A stretch of 57,292 nucleotides of DNA, taken from NCBI GenBank assembly GCA_035627655.1, contig DASPLI010000001.1:464217-521508 (forward strand). The letters are read 5' to 3'. The DNA is from Minisyncoccota bacterium (lineage in GTDB: Bacteria; Patescibacteriota; Minisyncoccia; Phycocordibacterales; Phycocordibacteraceae). Both the position numbers and the translations under genes were made by a program. Positions 1,926 through 28,621 of this stretch are shown here, piece after piece. The notes beneath the pieces are model-generated. The model did not search any database and was not told where the DNA came from. It saw only the letters and a program-made list of their open reading frames with translations. Every line of letters begins with the position of its first letter. Position 1 is the stretch's first letter.

Positions 1926-1936
1926 GTTTGGTGACC
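1926..1936 (+). repeat. att-like copy of the tRNA-Glu 3' end (GTTTGGTGACC)
   Basis: Identical to 5584-5594; minus strand reads GGTCACCAAAC. Confidence 0.65.
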
Positions 1937-2028
1937 ACATTAGGTGGAATTGGAACCAGCTCATAGCAGAGCTCAACTTCTGGTTAGTATTTGGTCGATC
2001 TCTCGAACATGAGCAAGAGTCACGATAA
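1930..2028 (+). pseudogene. Possible C-terminal tail relic of a site-specific recombinase
   Basis: Frame starting in the att core reads GDHIRWNWNQLIAELNFW..., resembling tails I recall for tRNA-targeting serine recombinases; no start codon. Confidence 0.3.
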
Positions 2029-2051
2029 ATACAGCCCTCGACGATTAGAAC

Positions 2052-3665
2052 CTATGATGATGAACGATCTAAGAGTGCAAGGGTTTCCGAATCGAGTCGA
2101 TGAGTGAACACGACAAGAAAGAACGGGACGAAGCTGGGAAAGCGTTTCAATAGATTAGGTAAAACCTCCCCATCAAAAGAGTTTGCTTGTATCACTAGCT
2201 TCTTCCAGGATTGGGCTTGCTCAGGGATGTAAGTTGCGTTATCACCTTCCTCCGAACGCCACAAGTAGTAACGCCAGTTTTCGGATGGTATGAATTGCTC
2301 AAAGTGGAAGAAGGATATCTCACGCCACCGGTCAGATATGGGAACTCGAAGACCCCTCCTGGCAAGTAACTCGATAAGAGGCTTTAGGAAATACGAGGCT
2401 CGCCTGTAATCATCCTCGAACTCGTAGTCTAGAAGCTTATATGCACGTTTAATGGCGAAATCGAAGTCATAATATGGCGAAATTAGACCTGGAGGTTCCT
2501 TCGCTTTCCTACCTCCAACTTTAAGGATTTGGTCCATGGCTTCAATGGAAAAACGGTAAGCATTCTCGTTCTGAGTGGGTGCTTGTCGAAATAGTAGCGT
2601 CAAAAATACGAAAGGAATCAATGACGCCTCGCCCCACAAGTTGATGGTTTCGTTGTATGTACCGTCTTGAAACTTATCGATCACGGCAGTCCAATTCTTG
2701 TCTCCATCAATAAGTTCTGAGAGTTTTAGGGCGAGCACATGAGCGGTAGCGGCATGTTTTCTCATTGGCATCAAATCCCTATCTAGCGGAGAGTCGAAAG
2801 CTTTCGTAAAACCACCCGTGTTAATTTCAGCCTCAAGTGCCCGTGCGGTTTGCAGGATATCCGCCCAGGTAATTTGAAAAGCCTCAAGCCAGTAAGCGTC
2901 AGCAAGGCGGCGCTTATCAGCCAACAGGAGTATATGGGTCAGTAAGAGAACGAGTATACGTAATACAGATATGTGATTTTCGTTCTTCCTGTAGGTTCCG
3001 ACCATAAGGTTTGCGTAGAGCACTGCAGCTGCTATATCGCGACGTCGCTGTTCCTTTGAGACTTCCTCATCTACTCTCAAGATCTTGGAAAAGAAAGAGT
3101 TCGCTGATTCGATATCGGCTAAACCTACTGGATTTGGAAAAATCAAATCAATAAGCTCCTTATAAGTTTGAGCGTCACGGGGCAATATTCCATGCGCCAT
3201 GGCCTGGAACTTTGTGAGTAGGTCGCCACGCCTCCATACAATTACCGGCGTATCCTTCCACCTACTTGCATTCAAATCATCGATCGCCACACGGACGGTG
3301 TCATCAAGCTCGCCATTGGTGACAAGATAGGAGATGTGTGGGTGGGATTTATCAATACCAGGGTGCTTTATGGGTATCTCGATTAGTTCTTCAATTTCAG
3401 GCTTTACTTCATCTCGCCATTTCCGCAATGTGATGTCGCCACCCTTCAACTGAAATGCATGGGCAATCCCTTCTGCATCTACGGCAATAACATCCTTACC
3501 TTGTTCGTGCGGACCACTCTTAGAGAAATGCTTAACCGTGAACCCTAGAGTGCAAAGTAGGCTACAGAACAGTGGTTGATAGCCTAGTTCATTAGCGGCA
3601 TCAAGCCAATATTCAACTGCCCGCTGCAGAAAAGGATCGTGTGTATCATGTTGGATAGTACTCAT
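2052..3665 (-). CDS. Mrr-like PD-(D/E)xK restriction-endonuclease domain protein with large helical C-terminal region
   Basis: N-terminal GPHEQGKDVIAVD...AFQLKGGD (D...QxK); ATG 3665 lies 2 nt after the upstream stop (alternative TTG 3671 overlaps it). Confidence 0.75.
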   Translation of the reverse strand: MSTIQHDTHDPFLQRAVEYWLDAANELGYQPLFCSLLCTLGFTVKHFSKSGPHEQGKDVIAVDAEGIAHAFQLKGGDITLRKWRDEVKPEIEELIEIPIKHPGIDKSHPHISYLVTNGELDDTVRVAIDDLNASRWKDTPVIVWRRGDLLTKFQAMAHGILPRDAQTYKELIDLIFPNPVGLADIESANSFFSKILRVDEEVSKEQRRRDIAAAVLYANLMVGTYRKNENHISVLRILVLLLTHILLLADKRRLADAYWLEAFQITWADILQTARALEAEINTGGFTKAFDSPLDRDLMPMRKHAATAHVLALKLSELIDGDKNWTAVIDKFQDGTYNETINLWGEASLIPFVFLTLLFRQAPTQNENAYRFSIEAMDQILKVGGRKAKEPPGLISPYYDFDFAIKRAYKLLDYEFEDDYRRASYFLKPLIELLARRGLRVPISDRWREISFFHFEQFIPSENWRYYLWRSEEGDNATYIPEQAQSWKKLVIQANSFDGEVLPNLLKRFPSFVPFFLVVFTHRLDSETLALLDRSSS

Positions 3666-3667
3666 GG

Positions 3668-4273
3668 TCAATCAATTAACTTTCGCGACTCAACATCCGT
3701 CATGTACTCAGCGTATTTCTTATCCATAATGACTCGCTCTCTTTCATCATACACAGCCCTCTCTTCAGGTGTGGTTTCGGCATTTATCTTTTGGAATGCT
3801 TCAAATGCCTCTGGTGAGGCAATTATCGTTGGACGGACCGGCTTTGAACGATCGTCATCCTCAAAATCGACAGCCATTTTCTCCAGCATCGTGAGAATGG
3901 CATCCGGAGAAAGAGGTGGGTTCCCAGGTATTGTATTGCCACTCTTTTGGATCGCTGCTTTCAAAGTCTCGAATAGGTCACGTTCTATTTGACCAGCCAT
4001 ATCATGAGCCGCAGCATCAATCTTCTCAATCATGTCTGTCATTGAAGTATTGGGTATCTGCTCGCGTGAGATTACGAAAGTGCTCTCAGCGGCACGCATT
4101 TCGCTCTCCTCACGTGTTCCATCAGCTTGGATCACGGATAGAACGGTTCCTTCGAATATGGTCTTCCGCGAACCGAGAGACATGGTAGGAGCCTTCTGCT
4201 TCACCTTCTGGCGAAGTACCTGATCGAGGAGTTTTTTAATCTGCTTCTTAGGCTCCGGAAAATCTACAATCAT
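3668..4273 (-). CDS. Hypothetical protein with possible partial HK97 capsid-like fold
   Basis: About 201 aa ORF; IFEG...STFVISREQI...DMIEKIDAAAHDMAGQIERDLF...IIASPEAF pattern; fold call is by eye. Confidence 0.6.
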   Translation of the reverse strand: MIVDFPEPKKQIKKLLDQVLRQKVKQKAPTMSLGSRKTIFEGTVLSVIQADGTREESEMRAAESTFVISREQIPNTSMTDMIEKIDAAAHDMAGQIERDLFETLKAAIQKSGNTIPGNPPLSPDAILTMLEKMAVDFEDDDRSKPVRPTIIASPEAFEAFQKINAETTPEERAVYDERERVIMDKKYAEYMTDVESRKLID

Positions 4274-4440
4274 AAGGTAAGTAAGCCACAATACTATGAC
4301 TGTGTCGATAGCAATTATATGTCCCGCCGCGCCGTAAAACTAAATTGGTGACCCTAACGATAACAGATTCAAAACCTCTATTAGATAATCTACAAGAAAT
4401 TACTCGTTTTGCCCTCAGTATTCGAGGTAGGGGCAATTAT

Positions 4441-4905
4441 TTACTGAACCTGTTCAAGAAGGGCAAGTCTCCACTGATTTGGTTGCTCAGGGAAGTTAGA
4501 GTCAGCACACTTCGCTACAAAACTACGAAAACTTTTATTAAGTTCATTTCTTATTTCTCCCATACGCCATTGTGCTTTCCCGTTTGTACGCTTCAGAGTC
4601 AAATGTGCCAAGTGTTTATTTATTGCTTCCTTTACACCTACTTTCAGATTAACTACTTCGCCTTGGAGTGGATTGCCGTTTATGTCAGTAAAGTCCGAAC
4701 AGGTGAGATCATCTTTGTTTTTTCTGTTACTTTCTAGAAAATCAATCAAAATACGAGCGTGCAAAAGAAAGCTCTCTAAAATTGCACTTTGCAGCGGTTC
4801 CTTATGTAAAGAATATAATTTGAATGTGTCATTTAGCATCTTGATTTCGTATACAAGAGGCTCAACTTTATTAGCTGGATATCTATCAATTATGAGGTAT
4901 GTCAT
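4441..4905 (-). CDS. Hypothetical protein, possibly HEPN-like
   Basis: 154 aa helical ORF; LESFLLHARILIDFL and INKHLAHLT (NKxxAH variant of Rx4-6H). Confidence 0.55.
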   Translation of the reverse strand: MTYLIIDRYPANKVEPLVYEIKMLNDTFKLYSLHKEPLQSAILESFLLHARILIDFLESNRKNKDDLTCSDFTDINGNPLQGEVVNLKVGVKEAINKHLAHLTLKRTNGKAQWRMGEIRNELNKSFRSFVAKCADSNFPEQPNQWRLALLEQVQ

Positions 4906-5428
4906 TTATAGAGTTTTGAATTGTCTCAATTTGTGCGGGATCTAGTTTTACTGTTTGTGTAAGGACTTGAGCAACAACAATGGGAGCGACGGCTGAAATA
5001 AAAGCAGCTAACACGGAAACTGCTATAGCAATTACTGCTAATTTCTTGGCTTCTTTTGCATTTTCTCTTGCAGACTTGAGCTCGTGGTAATCAATAAATT
5101 TAAAATGAGCGTCAAAACCAACAATGTACTTATGGTGTTCGTGCATGAAGCCTCCTCCGTCACCTTGTTCAACGATAAAGAAAGGTGTCTCCGCATTTCC
5201 TCTCTGGCCTGTTATTTTTGCGTTATATGCGTTTTTGTATGCAGTCTCTAAATACTCATTAACGATTTTTGTCTCCCATCCTTTAAGCTTCAAGCCACTG
5301 ACTAACTGCGGATATGTAAAACCTTCGGGGTACCCAAGCCCGTAATCTATAACACGTAGGAAGATGCTGTCTTCCAGCTTTGCGTCCAATGTGTCTTTCT
5401 CAATATCCTCAACCCGTCTCACTTTCAT
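4886..5428 (-). CDS. Hypothetical protein with C-terminal TM helix
   Basis: 180 aa; charged helix ELKSARENAKEAKK then hydrophobic LAVIAIAVSVLAAFISAVAPIVV; overlaps next gene by 20 nt; TATACT just upstream of ATG. Confidence 0.75.
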   Translation of the reverse strand: MKVRRVEDIEKDTLDAKLEDSIFLRVIDYGLGYPEGFTYPQLVSGLKLKGWETKIVNEYLETAYKNAYNAKITGQRGNAETPFFIVEQGDGGGFMHEHHKYIVGFDAHFKFIDYHELKSARENAKEAKKLAVIAIAVSVLAAFISAVAPIVVAQVLTQTVKLDPAQIETIQNSINDIPHN

Positions 5429-5586
5429 CAGCTAAGTATAATACTGAGTTCAAAACATCGTTAGGTGGGTTTTAAATCCCCTTGGAAACACTCAAAACCG
5501 CCTCTCCCGAATTCCACATTTTAAAACCCCACTTTTACTGTGGATCTGCCTGGTAAAACTCGGGTAAATCGCACAACTGAATCGTT

Positions 5587-5661
5587 TGGTGACCCCACGG
5601 GGAATCGAACCCCGATTTACGCCGTGAAAGGGCGCTGTCCTAGCCGTTAGACGATGGGGCC
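5587..5661 (-). tRNA. tRNA-Glu (TTC)
   Basis: Cloverleaf GGCCCCA...TGGGGTC, anticodon TTC, TTCGATT T-loop, encoded CCA. Confidence 0.97.
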
Positions 5662-5748: not shown

Positions 5749-5837
<89 letters not shown>

Positions 5838-27524: not shown

Positions 27525-27773
27525 ATGAACGAAGTCTCTGATTTTTTGATTCGCATTGAGCAGGCGATCCTCAATCCGATCATTACTCTCATCTCGCTTG
27601 CAGCGTTTTTGTACTTTATTTGGGGCGTCGTGCAGTTCATCCAGGCTGGCGCAACCGGCGGCGAGATGAAAGAAGACGGCAAGCGCCACATGCTCTGGGG
27701 CATCATTGGTCTTGCCATTATCTTTGGCGCGCGCGCCATCCTCGCGATCATCGCCCGATCTGCAGGTCTCTAG
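27525..27773 (+). CDS. VirB2-like pilin 6
   Basis: ATG 27525; two TM helices, loop EDGKRHMLWGIIG. Confidence 0.7.
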   Translation: MNEVSDFLIRIEQAILNPIITLISLAAFLYFIWGVVQFIQAGATGGEMKEDGKRHMLWGIIGLAIIFGARAILAIIARSAGL

Positions 27774-27855
27774 TGCTGGGGAGAGGACTCGAACCTCCAT
27801 GCCCGAAGGCGCTTGCTCCTAAGGCAAGTGCGTCTACCAATTTCGCCACCCCAGC
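27774..27855 (-). tRNA. tRNA-Leu (TAG)
   Basis: GCTGGGG acceptor, CTTGC-CTTAGGA-GCAAG anticodon arm, variable arm. Confidence 0.95.
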
Positions 27856-27983
27856 AATACGTCTAAGAATACACAGTAAGCGCTTCCTTGTCTCTACTGC
27901 TATATATTGACATATACATATAATATGTAGTAATATATTTGAACTGGACCTCTGCCATTTCGGCATGCCAGGGAGGGTATCGA

Positions 27984-28268
27984 ATGACCTTTCACTCGTC
28001 TGAAACCGTTCACGGCTATGCGATCCACGCCAATGCGAGCGTCGGCCTCTATCCAGAAATGGACGGCGAACTCATCGAGACGCTGCGCACTGCGTTCGGG
28101 CACGACCCGCGCGTCGCGACGATGCTCCAGGTCCGCTCCGCCGACGGCTGCGTGCCGATCGTGAGCCAATCCTTCGGCGCCATCCTGGCGAGCTATGACC
28201 AGCTCACCACCTGCCAGAAGCACGCCGTCGCCGAGCTGGCGCACTTTGAACGGATCGTCTGGCAATAA
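27984..28268 (+). CDS. Hypothetical protein inside tRNA cluster
   Basis: GGGAGG SD before ATG 27984; TTGACA/TAATAT promoter-like AT patch; terminator 28289-28316. Confidence 0.75.
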   Translation: MTFHSSETVHGYAIHANASVGLYPEMDGELIETLRTAFGHDPRVATMLQVRSADGCVPIVSQSFGAILASYDQLTTCQKHAVAELAHFERIVWQ

Positions 28269-28325
28269 GGCCGCGATCCTCTGACGACGAACGCCCCGCA
28301 TCACTGCGGGGCGTTCTTTCGTTTC

Positions 28326-28401
28326 TGGTCCGCCCACTTGGATTCGAACCAAGGACCAATCGCTTAAGAGGCGAGTGCTCTACCAGCTGAGCTATGGGCG
28401 G
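28326..28401 (-). tRNA. tRNA-Lys (CTT)
   Basis: Cloverleaf, anticodon CTT, encoded CCA. Confidence 0.95.
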
Positions 28402-28452
28402 ATACCTATGGATACTATAAGGCAACCAGTGTTTTTTCAACTGACACCTGTG

Positions 28453-28536
28453 TGCCGAGGGTGGGACTCGAACCCACACGACATTGCTGTCTGAGGTGTT
28501 TAAGACCTCTATGTCTACCAGTTCCATCACCTCGGC
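28453..28536 (-). tRNA. tRNA-Leu (TAA)
   Basis: GAGGT-CTTAAAC-ACCTC anticodon arm, variable arm. Confidence 0.93.
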
Positions 28537-28549
28537 AAGATACTGCTTG

Positions 28550-28621
28550 AGGCCCGAGCGGGAATTGAACCCGCGCATGGGAGTTTTGCAGACTCCTGCG
28601 TTACCACTTCGCCATCGGGCC
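28550..28621 (-). tRNA. tRNA-Cys (GCA)
   Basis: GGCCCGA acceptor, anticodon GCA, U73. Confidence 0.95.

Follow-up and report, generated by a model that had tools for sequence, protein, structure and literature searches.

The closest named system to the gene pair reported here is Olokun (OloA/OloB), a defence system reportedly described by Millman and co-workers in 2022. Capsid-related immunity is known in other forms: Lit/Gol is a capsid-sensing abortive system, and the HK97-fold capsid homologs (Ccm) of phage-inducible chromosomal islands disturb the assembly of helper phages. In Olokun, OloA and OloB form a 2:2 complex, and mutations in the nuclease site break this complex (bioRxiv 10.1101/2025.07.10.664194). 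Here we describe two adjacent genes, A (capsid-like partner) and B (nuclease plus helical domain), in a 57,292-nucleotide (nt) stretch of DNA (the window) from the Minisyncoccota bacterium contig DASPLI010000001.1 (assembly GCA_035627655.1, positions 464,217 to 521,508). A and B constitute one mobile, strictly coupled and co-diverging unit, and we lean towards the view that this unit is a mobile two-gene immune module in which A gates B and which is triggered by phage head assembly, with an outcome that is probably of the abortive-infection type. The pair gave no full match in PADLOC v2, Pfam or NCBIfam, in line with the initial reading of the sequence alone (the sequence-only reading), in which it was not recognised as a named system. 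A literature search of incomplete coverage, which leaves room for a recent naming, found no description of the pair, of its caspase relative or of a capsid-derived defence component. The module and its caspase-type branch are therefore apparently unnamed.

The association of A with B was analyzed by scanning one genome per species with the B alignment. This yielded 24 loci, in all of which (24/24) A lies directly upstream of B on the same strand, and the order was maintained in 38/38 loci once those reached via other homologs were added, confirming the co-occurrence that the sequence-only reading had left to be checked. Four distant A members were looked up, and each was followed by B (4/4); at least 17 A and B homologs were located on the same longest contig. 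The two genes are separated by +1 to +11 nt in the clade of the window, where 2 nt lie between the A stop codon and the B ATG, and otherwise overlap by 35 to 47 nt. Pairwise distances between A proteins correlate with those between B proteins (r=0.86, 25 loci), a value reached by none of the Mantel permutations (0/5000). The scan with B recovered the pair from Patescibacteria, Bacteroidota, Thermodesulfobacteriota, Myxococcota, Eisenbacteria, Chloroflexota, Acidobacteriota, Actinomycetota, FCPU426 and Nitrospirota. The distribution across phyla is patchy, and most genomes do not carry the pair.

Gene B encodes 537 amino acids (aa), or 539 aa if translation starts at an alternative TTG at 3671; its homologs number at least 147. 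Residues E26, E54, K57, D58, Q72 and K74 are invariant across 45 aligned homologs, which reach down to 24% identity. The AlphaFold model of B (predicted local distance difference test, pLDDT, 88; predicted template modelling score, pTM, 0.86) contains an N-terminal domain that was matched by Foldseek to the NucS/EndoMS structures 2vld and 5gke with a probability of 1.0 and a root-mean-square deviation (rmsd) of 4.1-4.4 Å; superposition of 2vld on the model gave 4.4 Å across 126 columns. Further Foldseek matches to this domain were EcoT38I, EcoO109I, Can2 and XPF/Mus81. The α/β core fold and the conserved acidic residues and lysine of the PD-(D/E)xK superfamily are both present, and the domain is the best conserved part of the protein (entropy 1.64). 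Judged from the model, B is a PD-(D/E)xK nuclease by fold that looks active and carries the Mrr-like D...QxK variant of the motif. The remaining ~370 aa are helical in the model, gave no confident fold match in the Protein Data Bank (PDB) with Foldseek, and are proposed to act as a docking or regulatory domain. B was without significant match in Pfam and NCBIfam, and Pfam assignments were empty for all 120 listed B homologs. The sole match in the defence library was PADLOC OloB, covering B residues 25-135 and model positions 14-131 of 556 (E=5e-6, 23.9 bits). The N-terminal D...QxK motif and the long helical domain that had been noticed from the letters were both borne out. The accompanying label 'Mrr-type' holds for the motif of B but not for family membership, since neither Pfam Mrr_cat (PF04471) nor Mrr_cat_2 matched B even at E<=1.

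A search of phage records by tblastn with the A consensus led to a second type of module. An A-like gene on MT835554 (L031, 1-33402) overlaps by 4 nt a downstream gene for a 636-aa protein with caspase motifs and no nuclease. Record MT835554.1 is labelled 'UNVERIFIED: Bacteriophage sp.' with human faeces as its source; its caspase-family protein is 100% identical to a multispecies Pseudomonas protein (P0303), and the record probably represents a piece of Pseudomonas chromosome, not the genome of a phage. Caspase-family proteins of ~630 aa (Peptidase_C14, PF00656) were found in Pseudomonas, Cupriavidus and Mesorhizobium, and an A-like gene overlaps the start of the caspase gene by 4 nt in 3/3 independent loci (L031, L037/L038, L039-L041). 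An hhalign comparison of the B alignment A2 (columns 172-494) with the caspase alignment A7 (268-592) covered 308 columns (probability 94.7%, E=6e-8) and shows homology between the helical domain of B and the C-terminal region of the caspase proteins. The A-like partners, including those of the Cupriavidus and P. chlororaphis loci, matched the A4 hidden Markov model (HMM) of the A family with E=1e-22 to 1e-26, and they are without the MIxDFP start and the RKLVD end seen in A. The shared A-like partner and helical domain indicate that these two parts are the conserved core of the module and that the enzymatic head is interchangeable, an effector swap typical of immune and conflict systems. In Cupriavidus (L037, 13082-16029, and L038), the caspase-type pair lies beside a Tn7-like TniB and two TniQ copies, together with a run of small unannotated genes and one HAD_SAK_2 gene, and may be cargo of a Tn7-like transposon.

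The effector swap also bears on the possibility that the pair has a housekeeping task, in DNA repair or the processing of nucleic acids, in which A would be an accessory subunit. Such a role would agree with the best structural matches of the nuclease domain, which are repair nucleases (NucS/EndoMS, XPF, Mus81), and with the position of one A-B locus between gyrB/recF and dnaN/dnaA. However, replacement of the nuclease by a caspase makes no sense for a repair enzyme, and the sporadic, horizontally transferred distribution of the pair, like the low guanine-plus-cytosine (GC) content of its island in the window, is not that of a housekeeping function, which we regard as very improbable.

Gene A belongs to a large family of uniform size. 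A profile search of 1.84 billion cluster representatives retrieved 1752 clusters at 50% identity (E<=1e-3). Nearly all of the 150 best representatives have 192-205 aa, the exceptions being some fragments and a few N-terminally extended sequences. Among 37 close homologs, 29 have exactly 201 aa. The near-constant length of ~200 aa marks shortness as a stable trait of the family, and a recent truncation of a prophage capsid gene was thereby ruled out. The start at 4273 yields the MIVDFP... N-terminus that is kept across the family. No consistent Pfam, NCBIfam or PADLOC match was obtained for A, with none in PADLOC at E<=1. The AlphaFold model of A (pLDDT 79, pTM 0.59) shows an N-terminal helix (residues 6-33), a β-hairpin (44-58), a long helix (78-111), a short helix and strands surrounding the conserved residues F137, P145 and P148, and a C-terminal helical hairpin (154-197) that includes a long charged helix (169-197). 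The best conserved segments are both termini, MIxDFP..K9 (entropy 1.57 for MIxDFP) and R197-K-L-I/V-D201 (1.4 at the C-terminus), and the most variable parts are the N-terminal helix, the β-hairpin (3.0 vs 2.57 overall) and helix 154-166. E41, next to the hairpin, is the only invariant column among 127 diverse A members. We propose that residues 41-60 are the equivalent of the capsid E-loop and helix 78-111 that of the capsid spine helix.

Profile comparisons suggest that A descended, quite probably, from an HK97-type head protein, of which it would represent the N-terminal two thirds. The A protein of the window (P0001) matched the PHROGs family phrog_544, annotated as 'major head protein', with E=0.0042. 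Group testing of diverse A members singled out P0170, residues 33-165 of which align with phrog_544 positions 56-184 at E=1.1e-8 (35.8 bits), so that significant profile similarity to an HK97-type major capsid protein exists for a member of the family. P0170 is a true A-family protein (E=2.9e-54 to the A profile) with a B homolog directly downstream. A further member, P0187, aligns in the same register (residues 83-175, positions 107-199, E=8e-4). By far the most recurrent family among the matches was phrog_544, found with 6/127 diverse A members; two more 'major head protein' families, phrog_2522 and phrog_371, were among the matches of the same 127 proteins, and the weak ones included Pfam Phage_capsid and Phage_capsid_4, once each. 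The P0170 match, its consistent register and the repeated matches to capsid families make chance hard to accept. For the A protein of the window, which itself reaches only E=0.004, the link to head proteins is transitive, through membership in the family. A covers only about positions 48-199 of the 282 of the phrog_544 profile, and the order of its secondary-structure elements fits the N-terminal part of the HK97 fold. In a Foldseek search of BFVD, a database of predicted viral structures, T7 gp10B was the first match of the A model (E=0.019, probability 0.99), and another capsid protein stood further down the list. No individual member of phrog_544 was identified, and a literature search for the family found nothing.

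The genomic surroundings of the pair often include mobile and defence DNA. Restriction-modification, cyclic oligonucleotide-based anti-phage signalling system (CBASS), toxin-antitoxin, Mrr, integrase, Tn7 or insertion sequence (IS) genes are present in 7/9 annotated neighbourhoods. One neighbourhood holds CBASS, a Type ISP restriction-modification enzyme, ParE/Phd and a transposase; others hold HinfI restriction-modification and Fic, an integrase with an excisionase and Mrr, an Mrr_cat gene between two IS3 copies, or an unstable-antitoxin gene. Of the caspase-type neighbourhoods, one contains the Tn7-like TniQ/TniB genes and another HicAB. An Mrr_cat gene lies directly upstream of A in the unrelated loci L036 (2235-3146; 8 nt away) and L044 (8482-9279), which could reflect a recurrent three-gene arrangement or mere clustering in defence islands. 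A divergent pair, with the protein accessions WP_054801557.1 and WP_064075238.1, is carried by the Rhodococcus qingshengii megaplasmid pdjl-6-4, near an ATP-dependent endonuclease, an exonuclease and a DEAD-box helicase, and its B is annotated by NCBI as 'restriction endonuclease'. None of the annotated A-B neighbourhoods contains head-morphogenesis genes, and only B recurs beside A in the 38 loci.

Residence on a megaplasmid, on a Tn7-like element, in integrase islands and beside IS elements would also be expected of a selfish addiction (toxin-antitoxin) module that stabilises islands or plasmids and has no anti-phage role. The gene order and the coupling of A and B resemble those of type II toxin-antitoxin pairs, and degraded copies exist. 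Nevertheless, no helix-turn-helix, ribbon-helix-helix or AbrB domain was detected in A, so that it lacks the DNA-binding domain usual in type II antitoxins, and both the nuclease/caspase swap on a shared regulatory domain and the CBASS and restriction-modification neighbours are typical of immune modules. We consider pure addiction unlikely; toxin-antitoxin and abortive-infection roles are, moreover, not mutually exclusive.

A number of results weigh against the capsid ancestry of A or against the proposed immune module. The homology to capsids consists of one strong HMM match and several weak ones, and the first-ranked BFVD match, T7 gp10B, superposes on the A model with a template modelling score (TM-score) of only 0.39 and an rmsd of 10.9 Å. 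Foldseek of the A model against the PDB returned no capsid (best E=3), and sequence searches of the PDB with profiles A1, A2 and A4 and with P0170 gave chance matches only. An hhalign comparison of A4 with T7 gp10A gave nothing significant, and the A4 and extended A HMMs, run over the T7 open reading frames (ORFs) and the TP901-1 and Mu head regions, reached capsids only at E ~1-3. In tblastn searches of 50,697 phage records, neither P0001, P0170 and the A4 consensus nor two A-like proteins matched a capsid gene; the A-like gene on MT835554 was the only find in phage records, which gave no B, and a pattern search of IMG/VR viral contigs for A and B found neither gene. Defence genes are absent from 2/9 annotated neighbourhoods (L025 and L043). 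Decay is evident in some copies: L020 and L021 have a frameshifted B, and mere fragments of A and B are left in the Nitrospirota locus L024. In L032 (2905-3459) and L033 (899-1453), B ends at 184 aa and comprises the nuclease domain only, which could be a pseudogene or a minimal variant. The suggestion of the sequence-only reading that A follows HK97 capsid patterns thus stands as a remote profile similarity, found through P0170, and not as a structurally confirmed fold; the Foldseek comparison it called for put a capsid protein first among viral models and none among PDB structures. Its description of A as truncated is correct for a protein of 201 aa that ends in a charged helix, and not in the sense of a recent loss, given the fixed length of the family.

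From the comparative evidence, we infer an A-B complex, a role in phage defence, a trigger and an abortive outcome, which may be connected as follows. B would be the effector, an N-terminal PD-(D/E)xK nuclease fused to a helical domain of ~370 aa, and A would be made in step with it because the genes are 2 nt apart or overlap. A may bind the helical domain of B via its conserved termini or its C-terminal hairpin and hold the nuclease inactive. Late in infection, a phage head-assembly protein (capsid, scaffold, protease or portal) would engage, cleave or remove A because, as we propose, A keeps capsid-type contact surfaces. The freed nuclease, or the caspase in the relatives, would then destroy DNA or stop the infection, probably at the expense of the cell. 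A more specific form of this mechanism, in which a domesticated HK97-fold capsid fragment is the sensing subunit and mimicry draws A into the head-assembly machinery, or has it cleaved there, so that the effector is released, is put forward tentatively as one possibility.

The main alternative, which we consider less likely, is that the pair is a defence module in which A is a plain inhibitor or adaptor of the antitoxin kind and its capsid resemblance has no functional meaning. Sensing would then reside in the helical domain of B or in the turnover of A, e.g., when host shut-off halts its replenishment. A small upstream gene coupled to a larger enzyme is the layout of type II toxin-antitoxin systems; the termini of A, and not its hairpin, are best conserved, which suits a docking role; the helical domain is the part retained on the effector swap; and the structural support for a capsid fold is weak. 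On the other hand, the P0170 match to phrog_544, with its consistent register and the recurring capsid families, is hard to ascribe to chance, and the rigid length of A over 1752 clusters points to a structured core under selection beyond that of a simple inhibitory peptide. The putative subunit-contact elements retained by A (N-terminal helix, hairpin and long helix) might instead make it a direct assembly poison, a dominant-negative capsid fragment for which Ccm of the phage-inducible chromosomal islands is a parallel, with B serving a separate purpose such as DNA degradation or mobilisation. There is little to recommend this explanation: conservation at these loci is limited to A and B, which alone recur, and does not extend to other satellite genes (integrase, primase, packaging); strict coupling, co-divergence with B and the shared helical domain argue that A works through B; and a truncated protein at a constitutive low level is unlikely to out-compete the abundant capsid protein. 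Gating of B by A in response to head assembly accordingly remains the reading that we prefer.

In the window, A and B form part of a low-GC island (GC 0.37-0.48 vs 0.53-0.62 in the adjoining flanks) next to two tRNA genes (Table 1). A 14-nt repeat bounds the island in two copies, the distal one lying between a beta-lactamase-family gene (894-1889) and the stop codon of B; a repeat of the tRNA-Glu 3' end at both island ends is a hallmark of integration into a tRNA gene. The tRNA islet and the two tightly coupled genes, intact on the minus strand, had been described correctly from the sequence, as had the lack of methyltransferase, terminase and portal genes, none of which was found near the pair in the window. 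An Rfam scan of the island region returned the two tRNAs only, and promoter and terminator scans of the island gave fewer sites than shuffled sequence. The other two island genes, C and D, whose ORFs overlap by 20 nt, were without significant match in Pfam, PHROGs, NCBIfam or PADLOC and were not found at any other A-B locus compared. They were therefore excluded as components of the A-B system and are regarded as separate cargo. Their GC content (0.37-0.41) is below that of A and B (0.45-0.48), which suggests separate acquisition, and they may represent another small two-gene module.

The genes flanking the island appear, mostly from their sequences, to encode a beta-lactamase-family protein, phosphoribosyl pyrophosphate synthetase, thioredoxin reductase and FtsZ. 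The first of these, on the minus strand just outside the island, has 331 aa, belongs to the class A beta-lactamase / penicillin-binding family (Pfam Beta-lactamase2, E=2e-31) and carries a membrane anchor at its N-terminus. In a genome that resembles those of Patescibacteria, a role in the cell wall is more probable for it than one in resistance. The window holds nine tRNA genes, including a Leu, Lys, Leu, Cys cluster at 27773-28621.

Table 1. Positions of the A-B pair, its domains and the surrounding island in the window.
Feature	Position	Strand	Description
Gene A, capsid-like partner	3668..4273	minus	ATG at 4273, stop 3668-3670; 201 aa, intact ORF
A residues 23-163	3785..4207	minus	phrog_544-aligned stretch, profile positions 48-182 of 282
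A residues 41-60	4094..4153	minus	E41-G42, then variable β-hairpin (DSSP strands 44-48, 54-58)
A residues 78-111	3941..4042	minus	34-residue helix in the AlphaFold model, ending at conserved G112-N113
A residues 154-197	3683..3814	minus	C-terminal charged helical hairpin, in place of the rest of the putative capsid fold
Gene B, nuclease plus helical domain	2052..3665	minus	ATG at 3665, stop 2052-2054; 537 aa, intact ORF
B residues 10-160	3186..3638	minus	PD-(D/E)xK nuclease domain (Foldseek and OloB model)
B residues 54-74	3444..3506	minus	catalytic motif E54-Q-G-K57-D58 ... Q72-L-K74, invariant in 45 homologs
B residues 165-537	2055..3173	minus	helical domain, common to the caspase-type relatives
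Low-GC island	1940..5583		four minus-strand genes in the order D, C, A, B; no integrase
Gene C	4441-4905	minus	154 aa
Gene D	4886-5428	minus	180 aa, C-terminal transmembrane helix
tRNA-Glu	5587-5661	minus	flanks the island
tRNA-Ser	5749-5837	plus	flanks the island
att-like direct repeat copy, GTTTGGTGACCCCA	5584..5597		overlaps the tRNA-Glu 3' end; repeat family D7
Distal direct repeat copy, GTTTGGTGACCACA	1926..1939		far island end; repeat family D7, 13/14 identical

If the pair is a true defence system, a large uncharacterised family, with 1752 clusters for A alone, joins the bacterial immune repertoire. To our knowledge, few defence systems have been described from the candidate phyla radiation, which is among the many phyla that the A family reaches. 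The module is also a natural experiment in modularity, in which a common small partner and helical domain operate with a nuclease in one branch and with a caspase in the other. The probable capsid ancestry of A suggests that phage head assembly is recognised through molecular mimicry, which would be a new route of infection detection. Should this be correct, it would be the first bacterial defence system with a sensor itself derived from a viral structural protein, and would correspond, in prokaryotes, to capsid-derived restriction factors and to the integrated decoys of plant immune receptors. Cultured carriers are available in R. qingshengii (plasmid pdjl-6-4) for the nuclease type and in Pseudomonas chlororaphis, P. 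syringae and Cupriavidus for the caspase type.

Compared with the known systems, A-B shares with Olokun the organisation as a two-gene operon that combines a PD-(D/E)xK nuclease of ~540-560 aa with a non-enzymatic partner. However, OloA is large and adaptin-like, whereas A has 201 aa, is capsid-like and has no PADLOC counterpart; the OloB match of B is limited to the nuclease domain and does not extend over the full length, and A-B is without an NTPase. Since the nuclease domain alone matches and no OloA is found among A, C and D, the pair was ruled out as an Olokun system. With Mrr and other type IV nucleases, B has in common the N-terminal D...(Q/E)xK motif and the absence of a cognate methyltransferase, but it differs from Mrr in lacking an Mrr_cat match and an Mrr_N or other DNA-modification reader domain and in having an obligate partner, A, and a 370-aa helical domain. 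A resembles HK97-fold head proteins by remote sequence homology over residues 23-165 and in the order of an N-terminal helix, a β-hairpin, a long helix and α/β elements; unlike them, it carries a helical hairpin instead of the remaining A-domain and the P-domain, and unlike head genes it has no portal, protease, scaffold or terminase gene nearby and always adjoins an effector enzyme. We do not regard A as a functional capsid gene.

The logic proposed for A-B is that of CapRel SJ46 (PMC9712102), where the appearance of the phage major capsid protein late in infection releases the effector. In CapRel SJ46 and Lit/Gol, however, the capsid is sensed by unrelated domains and no subunit is known to be capsid-derived, and the effectors are a tRNA pyrophosphokinase or an EF-Tu protease, in contrast to the DNase or caspase of A-B. 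The caspase-type relatives share with A-B a homologous A-like partner, the helical domain and the gene order, the two genes overlapping by 4 nt, and differ in an N-terminal caspase-like protease that replaces the nuclease and in the termini of the A-like proteins.

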